Below, piece after piece: positions 42,249 through 60,301 of a stretch of 64,000 nt of DNA; position 1 is the stretch's first letter, and every line of letters begins with the position of its first letter. Under the pieces are notes generated by a model. The model was given only the letters and a program-made list of their open reading frames with translations. It ran no database searches and was not told where the DNA came from. Origin of the DNA: Octopus sinensis (Eukaryota); assembly GCF_006345805.1 (NCBI RefSeq), contig NC_043011.1:28222464-28286463 (forward strand). The letters are read 5' to 3'. The position numbers and the translations under genes are program-made.

Positions 42249-44054
42249 ATATAATTCTTCATATGTTTAGGGTAAATAAAAACAATATATATTCTTGTGC
42301 ATTTCAGATGGCATGTAAAAATATTGCTACAAACTGTGAAATTGTGATAAGCAAAATAATATGTGAAGCATACAAAGAGTCCACAAGCATCGGCATTATT
42401 ATTCTATCATTAAACAACATTAAATTAAGCCAAAAATATCTAACCCAACATGTGTAAAATACAGTTAAAGAAATTGCTTTTCGACACGTTGTTAAAACCC
42501 ATTCTAAAATATATTAAGAGATTTATTGGAGAAGATCAACCTTCCAAAAACGATCACAAGAAACACCCATAGTAGCTTTTGCTAGAGTGAAATTTTACAC
42601 AAAATCCTTACGATTATGGGATAGAAGCATTAACACTCTTGTTTTGAAGTTATGTAGAAAAATTAATAAAACATACAGTCAAGGTCTAGTCAAGTAATCA
42701 TGTTCAGTGTAAGTTCAACACGTATGATTTTACATTAGTTTGTATTGATTTTGTATTTCTTAATACATATCGTCTTTTATCAATGGATAAAACAAGCATT
42801 CAATAATATTCAGCATCTATTACTATCATTGCACTGCTTTCATCTGCTCCTTTAATTGCTCTAATTGTTAATGCGTTATGAATTTTCTATTGAATTATGT
42901 TTTCCGATTTAATATTGCTGATTATTTTAGTTAATTTTTTGAATATCTATGATATTATATGGAAAATTCAAACTATGGTAGCGGAAATCCTAAGTGATTT
43001 ATTCCTATCTTTGGGTAAAGAATAATTGCTTTTGTTCCGAACAAGCATATCATCATCGTTATTCTTAGCAAATAATTCTTCTGGGAGTCATGATTTTTAA
43101 TAAAATTCTAAAATATCTTCTTTAATTTCATTGTAATTAGGTCTCCGGTGAATTGGGATTCATTTTAGTCCTTTTGCCATAATATCGATTTATTACACTG
43201 ATAATTGATGAAATGATAAATTTATTACTTTTGGGCATTCCGACATTTATCTCAATTCCTCTTGACAGGATCTAAAAGAGATTTCATTTGTTTCAGTTGT
43301 TAGTATTTGTAACACTATTAATGTTATTCGTTGAGTGATAGAGCTGTCTAAGATTATTAAATATACTTACTGCTTTCATGTATATTACATGAGATTCAAA
43401 TATATTTCGTTGATTGAAATACATTTGAAAGTAAAATAGAAGCACACGAAAAATACGCCAAATTGGCCAACATCCGAGTCAAAGTTCATGCTATAATGGT
43501 TCGACCCAGACGTTCTGTGGCCAAATCTGCTTACAATCACACGAAATAACGCTCAATATCCGGGGGAAACAGGATCAAAGCCCTAAAGGCTATATCAGAC
43601 GCAGCAGAGAGGTGTTCCATCTTGATCTGGTCGAGGATGAACGAGAACGATCTCCATACTGGTTGAGGGCAATATGTGGTATTTTCATGTACGCTTAGAG
43701 AAGTAACACTGCATGAATCATGATGTAGATTTGGCGGCAGCGTTCGTTGACATTGTGGACACTTCACCTCTGCTATGACAACGAAAGGTATTTTATTTCT
43801 GAACTCACGGAATGTAAGTTTGAAAGCAGAGGCCATAGACAGGAGTCCCAAGTAGATCTTGTCAGCAAAATCTCCTTATGGTTTAAATACACATCAAATC
43901 TATGATATTCAAAAGGCTCAAAATTGCCAGCATAAGGGCATCCAGGAGTCATATCTGAAGCTCTGACCCGAAACATTTTTCCGAAGAGGATTTCTTCTCT
44001 AATTATCTGTTGTTCAGAGGTCCCAAAAGTTTCTTGCCAGTTTCTTCTTGCATG

Positions 44055-44498
44055 AAAAAAAGTTGATACTTATGTTTTGAATATTACTTGTTCATTTCTA
44101 ATTTATAACTCGTTCTTATTTCTGCTTCAAAGTCGACTTGCTATGAAAAACTCAGAGTTTATCATGTTTTGTTTTATTGCTTTGAACGCTTACAAGACGG
44201 AAAATCGTGAAATTGAAGAAATAACCTGGATGGAAAACGATCATTGGACCACCAATAACGATGCAGATTTTTGAAAATGTACACAGATTTGGTTTTCTAA
44301 TTTTGAGTATTTAAAATTGAAAGCCTTTTCAGAAACGATAAGTGACTTATGAGATCAAATTGTAAGCGTTCACAGCATTAAAACAAAACATGATCAACTC
44401 TGAGTTTCATAGCAAATCGTCTTTGAAGCAGAAATAAGTACGAGTTATAAATTAGAAATGAAAAAGTAATTTTCAAAACATGAGCATCAAATTTTCTC
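44055..44498. mobile_element. MITE-like element with ~140-bp imperfect terminal inverted repeats
   Basis: 44055-44195 (catttctaatttataactcg...gaacgcttacaa) is the reverse complement of 44360-44498. Confidence 0.7.
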
Positions 44499-45026
44499 CA
44501 ACGGTACTTAGGAAACACCGTTGTAATAATTCCAGAAATTCCAGGATGGACTTGGCGTGTATATTAAAGATAAAAAGGGATGACAGAATTTACCAGCAAG
44601 AAAATTTATATAACCACAACAATTGTTTCACCTTCAAGATACATTGCTCCCTTATGGGCGTAGAACGATGCAATAACACCAAATGCAATGCACAGTGTAT
44701 AGAAGACTTCTCAGGTGGCATAATAAGGTTTAAGACGGGAGATTTACATTTGACTTTCGCTATACTGAGAAATTTTAACAGACAGACGCACAGACAAACA
44801 GACGGTCACATTCTTACATTTAAATCAATTCAAAAACATGAACATTCAGATACAGGAATCATTTTTTTTTCTGTCGATGGTTTATGTGCCCCTTTATTAG
44901 ACTATTTTCCATAGAAATTGCACGGTGATTTCCATAAGCTTTAAGCTTATATAAATATTATTATTATCATTTACAGGATTGTAAAACACGGCACCGTATA
45001 ACAAAACCATCCGCACCGAAAATATG

Positions 45027-47882: not shown

Positions 47883-48284
47883 ACACACACACAACATATA
47901 TCAGTCTCTGTAGCACTTCCACTTCAATTGTCTGGTGCTTGTAATAAGTTTAAGTTTGTACGCATCAGTGCTTGGCGTTTATATTCCGTATGTTATTACG
48001 GCCAAGCTGCCGGTTAGTTCCACCGGTCTTTGTACGCTGACTGGAATACAATAAGAGATCAATTTCTTGTCTGTCATTAGTGCCCCTCCTTTCCAGTATG
48101 TGAACGTCATGCATTCATCAGTCTGGCGAGCAGGCGCTTCGAACTGACTTGGTGTGCTTAAACCTATTTGCCAACAGAGAAAAATTTTCTTTCTGACAAA
48201 ATACAGAAATGGTTTTCTTACCGGTTCAAAATGCCTGACGCATTTTGAGCTGGTAACATATATATATATATAACATATATATAT

Positions 48285-48316
<32 letters not shown>

Positions 48317-48329
48317 ATATATTATTATA

Positions 48330-48777
48330 TATATGAAAAAAGGTTTGAAAATGCAATTTAAACGATGTTTATTACTTAACCGGTTCACTCTTTGGTAAAA
48401 GATTGTCAAAAGACTTCCTGTCAGGTGTCCCAGATGAACCAACTTCACGGCAGGAGGGGCAGATGAGGGCAGCTGCATCGAAACTCTCTCATGCCCAAAT
48501 GGCAGTTGCTAGAAAGCTTTCGTGAAGTGAAACCAAGTAGCAACACCAAATGGCGGTGCCCCAGCATGGCCACAGCTCATAAGCTGAAACTCGAACCAAT
48601 CAATCAATCAATCATATACATATATACAATATTATATATACCTATATACATATATTATATATATATATATACTATATATATATACATATATACATATATT
48701 ACATATATACATATATATATATCATATATACATATATATATACATATATACTATATATATATACATAATACATATAC

Positions 48778-48831
<54 letters not shown>

Positions 48832-49305
48832 GTTAGTTGTGGGGTATCGCGCGAGTGGATTATATATGAAAAAAGGTTTGAAAATGCAATTTAAACGATG
48901 TTTATTTACTTAACCGGTTTCACTCTTTGGTAAAAGATTGTCAAAAGACTTCCTGTCAGGTGTCCAGATGAACCACTTCACGGCAGGAGGGGCAGATGAG
49001 GGCAGCTGCATCGAACTCTCTCATGCACCAAATGGCAGTTGCTAGAAAGCTTTCGTGAAGTGAAACCAAGTAGCAACACCAAATGGCGGTGCCCCAGCAT
49101 GGCCACAGCTCATAAGCTGAAACTCGAACCAATCAATCAATCAATCATATACATATATACAATATATATATATACATATATACATATATATATACATATA
49201 TACATATATATATATACATATATACATATATATACATATATACATATATATATATACATATATACATATATATATCATATATACATATATATATACATAA
49301 TTACT

Positions 49306-49364
<59 letters not shown>

Positions 49365-49400
49365 GTTGAGTTGTGGGGTATCGCGCGAGTGGGATTATAT
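48330..49400 (-). repeat. Two tandem 534-bp units: PLE terminus with HHR + (TA)-rich tract + inverted copy of LINE 3' end
   Basis: HHR starts at 48375, 48909 and 49443 (period 534); 48413-48612 and 48948-49146 are reverse complements of 57903-58103. Confidence 0.88.
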
Positions 49401-49442
49401 ATGAAAAAAGGTTTGAAAATGCAATTTAAACGATGTTTATTA

Positions 49443-49481
49443 CTTAACCGGTTTCACTCTTTGGTAAAAGATTGTCAAAAG
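49443..49481 (-). ncRNA. pLTR hammerhead, U3-A8 core variant (also 48375-48412, 48909-48947, 55230-55268 on -; 57576-57614 on +)
   Basis: CUU-UUGACAA-UCUUU(uacc)AAAGA-gu-GAAAC-CG-GUU-AAG; palindromic ACCGGU stem III. Confidence 0.7.
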
Positions 49482-51510
49482 AAACTTTGAATATTATGGG
49501 TTCAAAAAAAGTTTTTTACATAATTGTCACATTGAATATTATGAATTCAAAAATGTTTTTTTATACATAATTGTCACATTACATGTATAAACATAGTATA
49601 AAAAAGTTCAATAGTATGATGAGAATATTTGGAAAATTGGCAGAAAAGAATAAAAAAATATATTATTGGAAATTTGGTTGCGTTAATTATTGGTTGTCGC
49701 CAATTGTCACATTACATGTATATATATACAGTCTTTGGTAGAAAGGACATGTTAAAGACATAAGGAAGTGTAATAGTTTGGTGAGAAAGCTTGTAATATT
49801 GACAGAGAAAATTAAAATGGATATTTTAGACATCTCAGAATATTTTGAATCGAAGGCGAGAATTTGTTTTTTACTGACCTGTTTGTTTTAGCAGAAAAGT
49901 TGGATTGAGAGAAAAAAAGATATGTACCCAGTTTGGTTTATACTTCCCCTTCAAGCATCAGTGATTTTGGGGTTATTGGGAGGTGAGTATGCGGGTGTGA
50001 ATAGATGTGTCCGTGTGCCTGCTGGTCAGACAGCGTCTGTTTGTCACACACATATATACACACACACACAACAACAATACACACACACACATAGTATACA
50101 CACACACACCACATACACACAACACACACACACAGAAACACACCACACACAACGCACCCACATATATAATATATACACACAGCACACAAATATAACATGT
50201 ATTTATATATAATATACACACATATATACACATACACCACACACACACACACACACAACACACGCACACATATATACATAATATAAATATCACACAAATA
50301 CACCTAGCATATATATACACATACATACACATCACAGCATGTATATAATACACATACACAATATATGTATGCAATATACATACGCAATACATACATATAA
50401 TATATATATATATAGACAATGCATATACATATATACATATATACATATAAATAGTGTTTACATACACATACATAGATATACCACATATACACACAATATA
50501 CATACATACAATGCATACACATACACGTACGCATACATATAATATATATAGACACACACACACATAGCATACATACACAATGCATACATATATATACACG
50601 CAACGTATATACATGTATTCATGTATATATAGCACACTTACAATATACATATATACAATGCACACATACACACATATATACACTTAATTGTACACATACA
50701 TATACAGTACACATACATACAATATACATATACACAATGCGCATGCAAATAATGCACATGTTTATACACACATATACATGAAGATATATATACACACACA
50801 CACATACACACACACATATATACATATACACATATATATATATATATACATATATACATACATACATGCACATACATATATTTTTTCACACACATACACA
50901 CACATATATATATAAATTCACACACACCACCCACACACACAAAATACAAACCTATAGCGTACACACTCAAATATATCTCTACATACCGCACACACACACA
51001 AACAATGTACTCACATATACACACATACCATGCATATACACACATACATGCATATACACATACTGCACACACACAGCACACACACATATATATGTATAAA
51101 AACAAATACACATGTAAATACATACACACGTACACAATGCTCACACACACACACCACATACACACACACACGCACACAGTGCAACACACACACACATATA
51201 TACACACGTGTACACCACACACACACAACGCGCGCACACACACACATACACAACACGACACACACACACACATACATATACACACGCGCACACACACAAC
51301 GTGCACACTCACACACACACACAACACCACACACATACACATAACCTACATATATATAATGCATGCGTGTGCGTGCCACGTATGTGTGCGGTCAATGCCC
51401 GCTAGTGTGTCCTATGCGTGCCGATGCGCGCATGTGCCCGCCCGCACGATATGCTGTGAGTGTGCGCGTGCCCCTGTGTGCCTGCTCTGGATGTGTGCCC
51501 AGGGGGCATG

Positions 51511-51910
51511 TTATAGTATGTTTAGTTGTGGTCTGTATTTTTGAATAAGATTACATTCCTTATTTATTCGTGTTTGGTCTGTGGTGTTGTCCGAGCATTG
51601 GTATAGTGGGAAGACTAAGAATTTGGGGGACTTATTGTGTGCACAAAGGTCTAAGTGTCCACTTAGTGGTATCTGTCTTGTGGAGGGGTCCCTCAGTTGT
51701 TGTCGGTGAACTGTCATTCTTTCTCTGAGGGTAAGGCTCGTTTGCCCTATGTAGTCTTCGTGGCATCCTTCACACCTTATGACGTAGAGTAAATTTTTTG
51801 ATGCGCACGTGAAATTATTTTTTATGATGAATGTGTGTCCCGAGTGGAACTTGTACGACGATCCCTCAATGAGGTGGATGCAGGTCTTGCAATTGGGGCG
51901 ACCACATTTT
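51511..51910 (-). CDS. PLE GIY-YIG endonuclease domain with upstream Cys-rich linker
   Basis: CGRPNCKTCIHL...NFTCASKNLLYVIRCEGCHEDYIGQTSLTLRERMTVH...HLDLC...KYRPQLNIL*. Confidence 0.9.
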
Positions 51911-53808
51911 TGATGGTGGGCGGTGGGTTTGTGTTGTGTAATTTTGCGTTGGTGAGGAGGTTTTTTAGGGATTTAGGTTGTCTCTTACTTTTTATTATTT
52001 TATGAGCTGCCAGTATTTTTTTCAGGCGTGGGTCTTGATTTAGTTGTGGAATGTTGTTGTATATAATAGTGTAAGCTTCTGCATTCCTTGGGTTGTGTGT
52101 TGAGAGATAGGGGAGGCTATTTACTGTACTGTGGATGTGTTTGGGTTTTCGTAGGTCTTGAATGTTGATTGATTTGGCCCGTTCTATTCCGTTGTCTACT
52201 AGTGATGCCGGGTAATGTCTTTCGAGAAGAATTGCCCTTAGTTCCCGGAGTCTTCTATTTCGTGTTGTGTCATTTGAGACAATAGTGCAGATTCTTCTCG
52301 CTAGGTTGAAGGGATATTTGTCTTTGTGTGTTTTGGGTGATTGGAGGTGAATAGAAGGTATTGTTTAGAGTCAGTGGGTTTGTAATGGATGTCAGTTTCA
52401 ATGTTGACGCCTTTTTTAATGATTAGGATGTCAAGAAAAGGGTGTTGGTCCTGACTATATTCCATTGTGAATTGAATGTTGTTATTAACACTGTTGATAA
52501 GGTTTTTGAAGTCTTTAAGTTGGTCGAGTGTGTGGGACCATAGGATGAGGCAATCATCTAAGTAGCGTTTCCAGTTCTCCAACAGGTATTTGTGGAAAGA
52601 CTGGCCGTACTTATATTTGGATTTTTCATAGATATGTGATTCCAGGTAGGCCATCACCAGGTTTGCATAGGTAGGTGCAACTTTCGTACCCATTGCAGTT
52701 CCTGAGACCTGTCTGTAAGTGTTGTTGTGGAAATACATGAAGTTGTTTTGCAGAATAAATTTGAGGCCCTCAATTATGAATTCTTTTTTAATTCTTTCCG
52801 GGATCTCATTGGGATATTTATCCAGCCAGAATTTAATGGCTTCCAGTCCATATTCATGTGGGATTGTGGTGTAAAGATTAATAACATCAAAAGAAACGAT
52901 TAAGGTGTCTTTATCGGCATGTTTGGGGAGATGATTTAATAGGTCCAGGTCATCTCTTACAATACTTGGAATGTGTTTCAGTATTGGCTTTAAGATGATA
53001 TCTATAAAGTTGCTAAGTCTGTGTGTTTCACAACTTGGGCCTGCCACTATTGGTCTCAGTTTGAGATCAGTGGGATGTGGTATAGTGATGCAGGTTGAAG
53101 TGGACTTTTTGCAAGCTTCTGTGATAATTTGACTCTTGTGTATTTTTGGAAGCCCATAGAGTGTGCTGGTTTTGCAATTAAATTTAGTAATGTAGTCGCA
53201 TTCCTTTGCTGTCAAGTCATTCCGGTGTTGGTAAATGAGTGCCTTCAGTTTGGTCATTGTTTTGGATTGCTGGTAGTCGACTACTCTCTCATAGTATGTG
53301 GTATCCTCTAAAAGGAGAGATACAGAGTTTTTATATTGCTCAGTATTCATAACAACGACCGTACTACCCTTATCAGCTTCCTTTATTGTGACGTTATGAT
53401 TGTCTCGTAGCGTATGGATGATTTCCCATTCTCTTTTACTGGTGTGGGTTTGAGTTTAGGTTGTGGGAGTTCACCATAAGGGAAGTTTGAGATGTAATCG
53501 CAAAATTGTCTAAGGTTTTGTTTTTGCCTTTTATGGGATTATAGTTGCTTTTGTTACGGACCATTGATTCGTCGTTATTATTAGTTTTCCTGTCAAAAAA
53601 TTCCTCTGTGAGGCGTAATTTTCTGCAAAAGTGTGAGATGTCATCCTGTATTTCCCTCAGGTTAGGGTATTGCGGAGTTGGGGTGAATTTTAGTCCTCTT
53701 GAAAGGATTTTTATTTGTGGTTGTCGACAGGTTTAGGTTAGAGAGATTCACTATTTTTGGTTTTTCGGGGTTGCTACCATCTGGTGTCGTGGAAACTGAT
53801 GCCCTTGC
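51911..53808 (-). CDS. PLE reverse transcriptase (broken by single-base indels; core ORF 52301-53350)
   Basis: IVNLS, LSRGLKFTPTP, IKEADKG, LYGLPKIHK, LRPIV, SFDVINLYT, GTAMGTKVAPTYANL, RYLDD, PFLDI, YKPT. Confidence 0.93.
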
Positions 53809-55110
53809 CTAAAAAAGGAATCCTGGGGGTTCTTCTATCTGTGGTATTTTGCTGTATGTGATTCTGTCCCCCGTTGATATGTTGTCTGTTGAAGAGGTTT
53901 TGGTGTTGTGATTCTGTCCCCCGTTGATATATTGTCTGTTGAAGAGGTTTTGGTTGTTCCAGGGTCTGGGTGTTGGTGTGGCCTCCTGGAAGAGTTTTGG
54001 TTATTCCAGGGTCTGGGTTGTTTGTCCTGGGTGTAATGTTTTCCTTAGAGTGGGTTGGAAATTACATTCATGGTTTAGAAGTGAATTCCTATATGTTGGG
54101 GGAGAACTCTGAGTTAGGAGCGGTTTGGGTTGGAATCTACAATCATAGTTCAGAGATGGGTTCTAAGTGATGGGTAGGATCTCCGAATCTGGAACGGTTC
54201 TTGTGTGGGTTGGGGTTTACGTTGTCTGGTAAAGTTTTGTCTTGTGATGATGGGTGTCTCGGTTCTTTTGATGGGATTGTAGTGCTGTCTGTAAGTTCTG
54301 TTGTTGTTGTTGTGTGTGTTGTCGGTGTTGTGTGGGTTGGTGTGTGTTGGTTTTCTGTTTGTTTTTTGGCGAGGGGTGTGAGTTGAAGTAGATATTTTAA
54401 AATATGGGTTGCTTGAAAGGTGTTCCTTTGTGAACTCTGTTTCATAATTGGCGAAACAGCTGTTTTTTCCATTCGCTGGAGGGATGTTAGTTCTTCATCC
54501 TCGCAGTTTTTTCTCCACAGTTTGGTGGTTTCATCAAGGAGTGCTCCTTCACAGTGTTTTGAGATTTCAATCTGCATTTCATTGTCAAGGGTCTTGAATT
54601 TTTCTTCACTGGCGTTGGCTCTGAGCCGCAAGAGTTCTACTTCCGTTTGGAATTTTTCAAAAGCTAGTTTTCTCCTGAGGTTTTTTGGTTTTCTGGTTCA
54701 TTTTGGATGGGTTTTATTTGTAGTTTTCTGGGTAGGATGATAGGGGTGGAGTTGAGCACCTTTTCATAAATGTCAGCTTTGTTGCTATTTTTTATGAAAT
54801 TCAGAAGGCAAACTTACGCGCTTTGAGATTTTTACTCCAGGTGTTTTAAGAGAGCTTTTAACTGAGAAGCAGTCTTTAGTTTGCTCCTGCTTTGGGAGCA
54901 CTGCCGTCTCTATGGATTTCATTAGGTTTTGCAGTGTTGGGATGATGTCAGGGATTTGATTGGTTGTTTTGGCCTCCATGAGTCCATTTAGGTATAAGTG
55001 CGATTGTTCGACTTTGTTTATTATGGTTGAAAGTTTCGAGGAGATTTCTTGTAATTCTTTTAGGATATTTTGGTTCATTAAAGATTCTGCTGTTGTGATT
55101 TGGGTGGCAT
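53774..55110 (-). CDS. Upstream ORF1-like region of the PLE (helical/coiled-coil-like, N/Q-rich tail), frameshifted
   Basis: ORF pieces 54785-55078 and 54143-54631; ~50-bp tandem repeat at 53858-53955; ends ...PRIPFLGKGISFHDTRW*. Confidence 0.55.
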
Positions 55111-55588
55111 TTTCGGGACTCGTGTGATGGTTATATATATATAAAAAAGTTGAGTTGTGGGGTATCGCACGAGTGGGATTATATATGAAAAAAAGGTTTG
55201 AAAATGCAATTTTAAACGATGTTTATTTACTTAACCGGTTTCACTCTTTGGTAAAAGATTGTCAAAAGAACTTTGAATATTATGGGTTCAAAAAAAGTTT
55301 TTTACATAATTGTCACATTGAATATTATGAATTCAAAAATGTTTTTTTATACATAATTGTCACATTACATGTATAAACATAGTATAAAAAAGTCAATAGT
55401 ATGATGAGAATTTGGAAAAATTGGCAGAAAAGAATAAAATAAATATATTATTGGAAATTTGGTTGCGTTAATTATTGGTTGTCGCCAATTGTCACATTAC
55501 ATGTATATATATACAGTCTTTGGTAGAAAGGACATGTTAAAGACATAAGGAAGTGTAATAGTTTGGTGAGAAAGCTTGTAATATTGAC

Positions 55589-57699
55589 CTCACAGCATAT
55601 CGTGCGGGCGGGCACATGCGCGCATCGGCACGCATAGGACACACTAGCGGGCATTGACCGCACACATACGTGGCACGCACACGCATGCATTATATATATG
55701 TAGGTTATGTGTATGTGTGTGGGTGTTGTTGTGTGTGTGTGTGAGTGTGCACGTTGTGTGTGTGCGCGTGTGTATATGTATGTGTGTGTGTGTGTGCGTG
55801 TGTGTATGTGTGTGTGTGTGCGCGCGTTGTGTGTGTGTGTGTACACGTGTGTATATATGTGTATGTGTGTGTGCACTGTGTGCGTGTGTGTGTGTATGTG
55901 TGTGTGTGTGTGTGAGCATTGTGTACGTGTGTATGTATTTACATGTGTATTTGTTTTTATACATATATATATGTGTGTGTGCTGTGTGTGTATATGCATG
56001 GTATGTGTGTATATGCATGGTATGTGTGTATATGCATGGTATGTGTGTATATGTGAGTACATTGTTTGTGTGTGTGTGCGGTATGTAGAGATATATTGAG
56101 TGTGTACGCTATAGGTTTGTATTTTGTGTGTGTGGATGTGGTGTGGAATTTTATATATATATGTGTGTTATGTGTGTGAAAAAATATATGTATGTGCATG
56201 TATGTATGTATGTATATGTATATATATATATATATATGTGTATGTAATATATGTGTGTGTGTATGTGTGTGTGTATATATATTTTCATATATATGTGTGT
56301 ATAAACATGTGCATTATTTGCATGCGCATTGTGTATATGTATATTGTATGTATGTGTACTGTATGTATGTGTACAATTAAGTGTATATATGTGTGTATGT
56401 GTGCATTGTATATATGTATATTGTAAGTGTGCTATATATACATGAATACATGTATATACGTTGCGTGTATATATATGTATGCATTGTGTATGTATGCTAT
56501 GTGTGTGTGTGTCTATATTATTATATGTATGCGTACGTGTATGTGTATGCATTGTATGTATGTATATTGTGTGTATATGTGGTATATCTATGTATGTGTA
56601 TGTAAACACTATTTATATGTATATATGTATATATGTATATGCATTGTCTATATATATATATATTATATGTATGTATTGCGTATGTATATGCATACATATA
56701 TTGTGTATGTGTATTATATACATGCTGTGTATGTGTATGTATGTGTATATATATGCTAGGTGTATTTGTGTGATATTTATATTATGTATATATGTGTGCG
56801 TGTGTTGTGTGGGTGTGGTGTGTATGTGCTATATATGTGTGTATATTATATATAAATACATGTTATATTTGTGTGCTGTGTGTATATATTATATATGTGG
56901 GTGCGTTGTGTGTGTGTGGTGTCTGTGTGTGGTGTTGTGTGTATGTGGTGTGTGTGGTATACTATGTGTGTGTGTGTATTGTTGTTGTGTTGTGGGTGTA
57001 TATAGGTGTGTGACAAACAGGACGCTGTCTGACCAGCAGGCACACGGACACATCTATTCACACCCGCATACTCACCTCCCAATAACCCCAAAATCACTGA
57101 TGCTTGAAGGGGAAGTATAAACCAAACTGGGTACATATCTTTTTTTCTCTCAATCCAACTTTTCTGCTAAAACAAACAGGTCAGTAAAAAAACAAATTCT
57201 CGCCTTCGATTCAAAATATTCTGAGATGTCTAAAATATCCATTTTAATTTTCTCTGTCAATATTACAAGCTTTCTCACCAAACTATTACACTTCCTTATG
57301 TCTTTAACATGTCCTTTCTACCAAAGACTGTATATATATACATGTAATGTGACAATTGGCGACAACCAATAATTAACGCAACCAAAATTTCCAATAATAT
57401 ATTTATTTTATTCTTCTGCCAATTTTTCCAAATATTCTCATCATACTATTGAACTTTTTATACTATGTTATACATGTAATGTGACAATTATGTATAAAAA
57501 AACATTTTTGAATTCATAATATTCAATGTGACAATTATGTAAAAAACTTTTTTGAACCCATAATATTCAAAGTTTCTTTTGACAATCTTTTACCAAAGAG
57601 TGAAACCGGTTAAGTAAATAAAACATCGTTTAAATTGCATTTTCAAACCTTTTTTCATATATAATCCCACTCGCGCGATACCCCACAACTCAACTTTTT

Positions 57700-57731
<32 letters not shown>

Positions 57732-58103
57732 ATATATATATATGTATATGTATATGTTATATATATATGTATATATGTATATATATATGTATATATGTAT
57801 ATATATATATGTATATATGTATATATGTATATATGTATATATATATATGTATATATGTATATATATATGTATATATGTATATATATATATTGTATATAGG
57901 TATGATTGATGATTGATTGGTTCGAGTTTCAGCTTATGAGCTGTGGCCATGCTGGGGCACCGCCATTTGGTGTTGCTACTTGGTTTCACTTCACGAAAGC
58001 TTTCTAGCAACTGCCATTTGGTGCATGAGAGAGTTCGATGCAGCTGCCCTCATCTGCCCCTCCTGCCGTGAAGTTGGTTCATCTGGGACACCTGACAGGA
58101 AGT
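55589..58103 (+). repeat. Right arm of 2.5-kb inverted repeat (left arm 48948-51460)
   Basis: PLE 3' UTR, pLTR, (TA)-rich tract and LINE tail are all mirrored with high identity. Confidence 0.92.
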
Positions 58104-58981
58104 GATCCAGCTTCATTTTAAAGACATCTGCATCCACCCCATGCAGGTCTCTCAGTTCTTCGGGAGGATATTGAAGAGCTGTGGGTCTCGGAAGCCCAGG
58201 CTATCACAGAATCTTGTCCTACATCTTGATGGCAAGTTTGGAGTCCTAGGCACCACGCAGTGGCGCCCAGTTCTGGCATTTGCGTAACTCTCGATGCCAA
58301 AGTTTGGGACACGTCCTCCAGGATCTTCCAGATGTATTATGGCATATCTTTCCCGCCTACGCTCCAGGGAATATAGTTTTAATCTCTTGAGTCTTTCCCA
58401 GTAGCTTACATTCTGCATAGAGGCTATCTTCTTCGTGTAGCTACGTTGGATCGCCTCGAGCTCTGTGATCAACTTGACACTGGATGGTGACCATAACTGA
58501 GAGCAGTAGTCAAAGTGGCTTAGGATAAGTGTCCTCCAGAGGACCATCATGGTTTCTTGTTCTTTTGTTCTAAAGGTTCTGAGGATCCATCTGGCCAGTC
58601 GTCTACATTTCATTGCCAATTTAGCAACATGTACACGAAAGGTCGCGTCATCACTCATGTAAATACCTAGGTCACGCACTTATTGTGCCTCTGGGATTGC
58701 TATTCCTCTGGGTCCAGTGTATTCATTGGGTATTGCATTTAGTTTTGCATGCTGATAGTATAGAGCTTGAAACTTTTCAGCATTGAACTGCATGCTATTC
58801 TTTTCAGCCCACTTGTATATTTTGTCCAGCTCACATTGCAGGGTTCTGTATTGCCTGTGAAACTTTTGTATCATCTGCATAACTTGTGATCGTGGCTCTC
58901 TCCGTGGCTGAGGGCATGTCTGAGAGGGCCATTATGAACAGTAGTGGTCCCAGAACAGTGCCCTGCGGAACACCGCTCACT
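57903..58981 (-). mobile_element. 5'-truncated CR1-group LINE (second family)
   Basis: [48 protein letters not shown]; tail (CAAT)n. Confidence 0.92.
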
Positions 58982-59028
58982 ATTTGCGTGTTAATGGAAA
59001 TATATATATATATAGTATATATATATAT

Positions 59029-59080
<52 letters not shown>

Positions 59081-59091
59081 CCTATATATAT

Positions 59092-59122
<31 letters not shown>

Positions 59123-60301
59123 GTGTATGTACATATATTATATATATGTATGTATGTATGTACATATACACATGTATACATATATATATGTGTGTGTGTA
59201 TACACATATATACATACATATATACATGGGATATATGTACGCATGTGTGTATGTCTATGTATGTGTGTGAGCGTATGTGCGCGCGTGTGAGTGTGCAAGA
59301 TAGGATAGATAAATAGATAGATATAAAATATGAAAAGCAAATGCTGAAGTTCCACCTTTAAAAGCATGACTGGACCTTCTCTGCACAGCCTCTGAATGGC
59401 CAGCTGTATGTCGATTTAGGAAGAAAGAGGCAGTTTCTAGGGCTCGTGGTACCAAAAAACGATCTATCGAAAACAATTGATCATTCATTCTAAATTACCA
59501 AAATTTTTTATCCATGTTGGAAATCACAGTGCTAAGCCAGCGAGAAGTGAATGCGTAGTGTAGCAGAAACTAGTGGAGAATTACCACAAAAGAAACTGGT
59601 AAAGCTTACTATCAGTTTATTTTTGAAGGCTATAGAAGCATTTCAGAAGTGTTACTCAGCAAAGTTCTCTTCCGCTTCGGATTTTCGGGGGCGATTAAAG
59701 AAAATTCGACATTGGCGAAATTTTAACTCAGAGCGTAAAGTCACAGAACAAATAACGAGATACCCTTTGCTTGACGCTGCAACGAATCCTAGAATTATTA
59801 TTCTTTCATTAATAGAATTGACCTGTGGCTAAGAAACTTGATGTTGGTAATATGTCTTATGAAATTTAACGGTTTCCATAATAAATATTTGCTTAATATC
59901 ACTTCAACTGAAACAAATATCATCATAGCAAGCAATATCCTATACATAAGAAGAAACCAATAATGTGAATTAATATAAATTGAATAAATTTTGATTCAAT
60001 ACGAATATCAGAGCCCGTAGTTAATATTCAAATTCTGTTTCAGCCCCACCCTCTAATCAAAATATACATTTAGCTGATATAAAGTTTCATAAATTCTTTG
60101 TGAAGCGGGTCAAAAATGAAAGTGATATTAACTGTAAGGATATTTGTTATGAGAAGTAAATGGAATATTCATTATGCCGTATTTGTTCTAGCAGAAAGTA
60201 TGAATGTATGTGTAATGAATACAGATATTACTGAAGAAAAAAAAATCATAAGATGATAACAACAACGGCAACATTATTATTGTTATTATTATTATTATTA
60301 T

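Follow-up and report, generated by a model that had tools for sequence, protein, structure and literature searches.

How did one locus of the Octopus sinensis genome come to carry three hammerhead-like motifs in a row, about 534 bp apart? The locus lies in a 64,000-nucleotide stretch of DNA—hereafter called the “window”—on contig C15 of this microsatellite-rich, 2.7-Gb genome. The first-pass annotation took the repeats for a possible nascent retrozyme-like RNA, processed by its own hammerheads. Our analysis points to a different origin: with a probability of roughly 0.6, one young Penelope-like (PLE) insertion has had its left end rearranged, and the 534-base repeats are that end. Probably, they arose as a by-product at this locus and do not represent a mobile ribozyme RNA. 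The annotation was mostly right in what it observed and mostly not in how it interpreted it, and the structure that it described appears to be an uncommon rearrangement at one end of a young PLE insertion.

The insertion occupies 48328–57700 (9.4 kb), and its Neptune-like assignment rests on the linker motif and the target. The coding region (51511–55131, minus strand) runs through several reading frames, interrupted by indels, and encodes a reverse transcriptase (RT; Pfam RVT_1, E = 2.8e-8, 52304–53455) with a C-terminal GIY-YIG domain (Pfam, E = 5.5e-5, 51514–51972); both matches exceed the curated Pfam cut-offs. A C-x4-C-x2-C linker is present in the 51511–51972 frame, and a PDB search with the PLE RT gave no match. 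To the right of the coding region are the 5′ pLTR (55132–55588, 457 nt, minus strand), whose tail carries the base usual for the family, and an inverted, 5′-truncated arm (55589–57700, plus strand), which forms the outer right end of the insertion and bears a tail. To the left is the PLE 3′ UTR/3′ pLTR with its tail (49361–51460, minus strand), which is an inverted repeat of 55589–57700 and contains the native hammerhead-like motif (motif 1, predicted cut at 49445). This arrangement is that of the EN+ PLEs of the Neptune clade, which are described as having an RT followed by GIY-YIG, a CX2-5CxxC linker, a partial tandem with a 5′ pLTR, an inverted 5′-truncated arm, a 30–40-bp tail at one end, a microsatellite target and a pLTR hammerhead (PMC8557442). 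The locus departs from that description in its left end, which contains, in two copies, the right junction and its flank in inverted form.

The tail of the PLE pairs with the start of the ORF as a hairpin over a (TA)6 loop (minus strand, 55090–55185; z = −4.1), resembling the stem-loop where the anole element begins reverse transcription; the tail has been tied to two RT start sites (PMC11167929). On the left, the target flank is a (TA)n tract (48258–48327, no strand assigned). On the right, the flank consists of a TA-rich tract and a LINE (57701–58980, minus strand), the 3′ end of which lies near 57915 and the body of which runs on past 58103. An RVT_1 piece of this LINE (58834–58980, E = 1.4e-6) scores slightly under the curated cut-off, and a likeness of motifs suggests that the element may be CR1-like. 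The LINE is 5′-truncated into another long TA/CA microsatellite (58980–59350). Elsewhere in the window, a 96-bp inverted repeat is also found at 44053–44500.

The repeats begin directly beside the (TA)n tract. The outer left PLE end is an 85-nt pLTR piece without a tail (48328–48412, minus strand), which contains motif 3 (predicted cut at 48377, helix I of 3 bp). At the first chimeric junction (48412/48413), this piece gives way to a LINE 3′ end (48413–48615, plus strand) that is a copy of the right flank at 57902–58103, followed by a TA-rich tract (48616–48829, no strand assigned) copied from the right-flank tract. The next pLTR end (48830–48947, minus strand) has a tail of ~35 nt with a locus-specific base, and contains motif 2 (predicted cut at 48911, helix I of 3 bp). 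The second junction (48947/48948) leads into another copy of the right-flank LINE 3′ end and TA-rich tract (48948–49360, plus strand). The annotation's unit order (hammerhead, pLTR end, TA-rich tract, antisense LINE 3′ end) is confirmed, with the pLTR end carrying a tail, and so is its junction sequence. The assembly does hold two complete units of ~534 bp and three motifs, all on the minus strand; the third copy, however, marks no boundary of a free element, but is the native 3′ pLTR of the full-length PLE. The “exact” period was likewise correct in part: the spacing is 534 + 534 bp at the predicted cut sites, but 535 + 534 and 533 + 535 bp at other marks (families D12 and D11). Aligned to each other, the two units show 18 gap columns and 1 clean substitution, and the exactness is partly the luck of indel noise.

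Where does the LINE piece come from? It matches the local right flank with 0 mismatches over 188 nt, as compared to 3–10 mismatches with each of 18 other genome copies, picked as the best matches. The LINE continues normally beyond 58103 only at the right flank, and loose contig ends show the same continuation. In addition, one tail base is common to the three tail ends (48850, 49385 and 57674); neither the 5′ pLTR nor any of 15 siblings has it. Genome-wide, the 20-mer with this base occurs exactly at these three places and in one unrelated older copy with a different flank. The copy L121 was rejected as the donor of the base, as it is 92% identical and its flank differs. Since the LINE piece has no mismatches and the tail base is shared, the units read as copies of the insertion's own right junction with about 400 bp of its flank. 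In a self-comparison of the window, 48948–51460 is a 96% inverted copy of 55589–58103 (2 clean substitutions over 2,473 nt of alignment), and 49347–49803 is repeated in direct orientation at 55132–55588. The “captured LINE tail” is local target flank, and its capture as a cis signal is unsupported. Its 3′ hairpin folds weakly (z = −2.2; 6 of 200 shuffles as good) and does so on the plus strand, which is free of ribozymes; the joint action of ribozyme and hairpin is unsupported, as the two lie on opposite strands.

The junction itself needs a different description. It had been placed at the 5′ edge of stem I, but falls inside helix I and removes the outer 5′ arm, 36 nt upstream of the predicted cut. 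The ACTT-type microhomology is 2 nt out of register, and the in-register microhomology is 1 nt. A genome-wide search for dispersed copies of the chimeric junction—the check that the annotation proposed, naming a junction unique to this locus as an argument against itself—found none. The junction 20-mer occurs exactly at two places, both in the window; three of its six one-mismatch matches were examined and are unrelated sequence. Moreover, a full-length unit match exists at this locus only, among the best 40 of 618 candidates scored. A truncation hotspot at the junction site was rejected for G or C two bases upstream of the helix I core, where two of two exact 19-nt matches are this locus and no other copy was found; A at this position is a subfamily variant (first 100 of 167 matches), and the test is blind to T.

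Are the motifs hammerheads? Each combines a UUGACAA core, a stem II of 5 bp that closes with U-U, GAAA, a palindromic helix III and a U-H cut site. Across the 139 motifs of the family loci examined, window copies included, the UUGACAA core is found in 137, with the cut context GAAACCGGU-H. Minimal type I PLE hammerheads have a C3-G8 or U3-A8 core, a palindromic helix III and a U-H cut, all of which the motif shows in the U3-A8 form; it also shares with the published examples the covariant core, the short helix I and the location in a pLTR (PMC4209133). It differs from them in two ways. Helix II is closed by U-U, family-wide, in place of the conserved G10.1-C11.1, and helix I, 4–6 bp in the minimal type, has only 3 bp in both chimeric copies. 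In the native window copy, helix I consists of 3 bp, U-U, and then 2–3 bp, while the contiguous pairs number 4–7 in 124 of the 139 motifs and 2–3 in the other 15. The helix I duplex energy is +0.9 kcal/mol in both chimeric copies and 0.0 in the native window copy, as compared to −3.1 in an intact sibling. Because helix I is shortened to 3 bp, a transcript of the chimeric motifs is predicted to cleave poorly.

Rfam returned no hammerhead match at the gathering score or at E ≤ 10, and only TA-driven microRNA matches. The descriptor YTGANRA-N8-22-GAAACCGGTH, on the other hand, matches the genome 10,965 times versus 217 for the reversed control (50-fold); the first 100 of these matches have many unrelated stem II sequences and are nearly all U3-A8. 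The exact 34-nt ribozyme stretch occurs 334 times. This family-level evidence supports the motif, and the annotation's PLE-type hammerheads in tandem are borne out. The roughly 11,000 minimal hammerhead-like motifs in the genome represent many families, in which stem II differs and the palindromic helix III is constant.

How do the ends of the insertion compare with those of its relatives? Family copies end at ...CATATATA followed by (TA)n, or ~35 nt further on, past the tail, and sibling ends adjoin (TA)n. In siblings carrying both arms, one end is tailed and the other is not—hereafter called the “one-tail rule”—at 10 of 10 loci, which were drawn from 28 other loci selected by a tail-bearing match. 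The outermost ends in the window follow this rule, with no tail at 48328 and a tail at about 57700. Therefore, 48328–57700 is one insertion, and the repeat units lie inside it.

A second locus with a like design belongs to another subfamily (L124; G000:C2:38319200-38324700; L074/L075). Its tail is followed by TA72, by 6 nt from the far flank, by a return through 2-nt microhomology and by the no-tail end; the return point is 18 nt upstream of the ribozyme, and the ribozymes are 217 bp apart. The first 100 of 154 exact tail matches yielded 99 distinct ends, with at least 1.4 kb downstream scanned; after 5 flagged as 5′ pLTRs were set aside, the design was seen in 1 of the remaining 94 outer tail ends, which is this same locus on C2, and one more end has an unrelated older copy nearby. 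As for the mirror-image design, a second end on the same strand accompanied 1 of 36 no-tail ends, and this is a plain tandem duplication: at L247:697-3170, a truncated PLE copy without a tail has been duplicated directly over 1.2 kb, which has produced two tandem hammerheads. Among 14 of the 15 distinct loci with short arms preceded by (TA)n, an upstream tail was present only at the C2 locus. Two-tail candidates on C4 and C10 were rejected as ordinary 5′ pLTRs. From these comparisons, the copying of the far junction appears to be rare, and specific to its locus each time. Some siblings have internal deletions with a breakpoint in the ribozyme, from the stem II loop to the tail in L059, in the 5′ arm of helix I in L030, and from stem II to beyond the cut in L230.

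How, then, was the right end copied to the left? The outer ends are usual for the family and lie in a (TA)n target, and the right end is reproduced base for base; for the route, we infer a strand switch. At somewhat better than even odds, such a switch placed the right junction and its flank, inverted, in the left end, and one tandem duplication followed. The strand under synthesis through the left 3′ UTR would fold onto the inverted right arm; alternatively, the replicated right end may have been fused in, as at L1 breaks. The strand would then pass through the tail into the flank up to 58103, and rejoin the left arm within helix I by 1-nt microhomology, so that direct repeats of 85 bp would stand ~534 bp from each other. 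The second unit could then come from unequal exchange or from a repeat round of the same switch, and the hammerheads would be passengers. Since the copies show near-zero substitution, the event probably took place at or soon after integration. The annotation had supposed that the repeats may record a template jump, and in this it is supported. A further precedent is Pen1_Av of Adineta vaga, in which, as in our locus, host DNA separates the body from a terminal 3′ pLTR piece; the spacers there differ per copy, measure 0.9–1.5 kb and are described as a rule of the family, whereas the spacer in our locus comes from the insertion's own far flank, and the design is rare (1/94) (PMC3846280). Foldbacks and templated insertions at LINE-1 breaks are similar, in that local DNA is copied inverted at a retrotransposon-made break (PMC11702581), although they were described for human L1 in cultured cells, whereas a PLE with two primed ends is involved here. 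Counting against the switch, no intermediate was seen, the design is rare, and the window copies carry more indels than their siblings. In the literature searched, we found no description of a PLE end copying the far junction.

Could the structure be an artefact of assembly or reads, in which reads of the inverted arm and flank were stitched to the left end, or one unit was written twice? The unit copies differ almost solely by indels, and per 100 nt the window copies have 0.66–2.3 gap openings, about twice the 0.29–0.73 of the siblings; assemblies are also reported to be troubled by inverted and tandem PLE structures (PMC8557442). We nevertheless consider this explanation unlikely: the window contains no N, both junction copies are identical over 47 nt, the outer ends keep the one-tail rule, and the design recurs at the second locus, there with that locus's own flank. 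A read check covered contigs from three runs, all of the same sample, together with 3% of one raw run, which gave 2 reads; among the 24 pieces listed on 48330–48620 (beside 10,046 that fell outside the listing), none spans 48412/48413, and any spanning contig would be short.

A strand switch in DNA, a fusion of sister ends and an RNA read-through predict much the same sequence. In the last case, a transcript from a PLE copy at this locus, comprising the element, tail, TA tract and 200 nt of antisense LINE, would be reverse-transcribed into its own place again, and the RT would jump, on two occasions, from the ribozyme region to the RNA's 3′ end. The identical entry and exit points were used twice. 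Moreover, in both known cases the return point lies no more than 18 nt from the 5′ side of the ribozyme (n = 2), which a random DNA switch does not predict, and which thereby keeps this route in consideration. Read-through with template jumps was proposed for rotifer PLE inserts (PMC3846280), and PAc is reported to be able to nick its own pLTR (PMC11167929). For the RNA-mediated route, however, the source copy would have to suffer a large deletion and priming would have to occur at the RNA 3′ end, while PAc is described as starting for the most part at internal sites (PMC11167929). A cleaved template would end at the cut, but the exit point lies 36 nt away from it, and no promoter or RNA end is known at 58103. 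We therefore judge it rather improbable.

Might the locus be a retrozyme all the same, at its birth? PLE integration would occasionally copy the far junction and flank into the near end, giving locus-specific, hammerhead-bounded tandem units, and the locus, a non-LTR retrozyme at birth, would be transcribed from the intact upstream PLE and cut into a 534-nt RNA or circle by the native core, which would act on the neighbouring motifs with protein help. We regard this as very doubtful. Like non-LTR retrozymes, the locus consists of non-coding, pLTR-derived tandem units of low GC (30% in the monomer), each with a type I hammerhead-like motif (PMC7229834; bioRxiv 10.64898/2026.07.22.740005), and PLE pLTRs have been proposed as non-LTR retrozyme sources (bioRxiv 10.64898/2026.07.22.740005). 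The description “tandem units, a hammerhead in each, no protein” applies loosely, with two of the three motifs truncated. Retrozymes are characterized as abundant 170–400-nt RNAs with mostly canonical motifs (PMC7229834), while the locus is single, with two units, no dispersed family, and a minimal U3-A8 motif with a shortened helix I. The retrozyme-like period of 534 nt compares with ~170–400 nt in one account (PMC7229834) and with 51–972 bp in another (bioRxiv 10.64898/2026.07.22.740005), in which 8 of 9 predicted dimers did not cleave and 1 did. The fold of the monomer (z = −11.7) was rejected as evidence, since the TA tract drives it. Mobilisation of the monomer is unlikely, because the units are without the ORF-start half of the tail hairpin, and PAc is reported to need the first 172 nt of the ORF (PMC11167929). 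The locus looks like a retrozyme in layout, which does not imply membership.

Least credible is the annotation's own proposal, in which hammerhead cleavage releases a 534-nt monomer that is circularised and copied as a multimer: for all the tandem hammerheads and the hint from sibling insertions that intact family ribozymes cut, the junction lies 36 nt upstream of the cut and could not have arisen from a cleaved template or from a circle closed at that cut, and an origin by ribozyme processing or circle copying is unsupported, the weakened helix I and the lack of dispersed copies also standing against it.

Do the ribozymes of the family cleave at all? Several sibling arms start at the predicted cut, which is +36 when counted from the helix I core. 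In L165 (G000:C4:77365557-77365622), both arms begin exactly at +36, with a 13-nt filler, and in L218 (C18:25220551) and L219/L240 (C19:12393492), one arm each begins at +36 after unlike sequence. L151, L162 and L220 begin at +34 to +36, which microhomology explains equally well. Offsets from +29 to +47 gave 26 matches, classified by eye as 14 intact variants, 2 chance matches, 1 internal deletion and 9 truncated arms; 5 of these 9 (4 loci) begin at +34 to +36. Rfam gave no match on three truncation loci. The same 8 letters precede the cut-site start in L165/L226 and L219/L240, two independent insertions, and resemble the reverse of part of the tail. These truncations are suggestive of intact family ribozymes, with full helix I, cutting in vivo; for the anole element, the published RNA-seq is described as giving no sign of in vivo hammerhead cleavage (PMC11167929). 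They raise the case for a retrozyme at birth slightly, although they concern motifs with full helix I.

PLE integration is poorly understood, and an end that copies the opposite junction and flank, at two loci, traces the joining of the primed ends. The locus also shows one concrete path from a pLTR hammerhead to a short tandem unit, even if the unit itself is probably inert; for the birth of animal retrozymes, this step had been suggested but not seen. The cut-site starts would constitute evidence from the genome for in vivo cleavage by a minimal PLE hammerhead, and they may matter more than the repeats.
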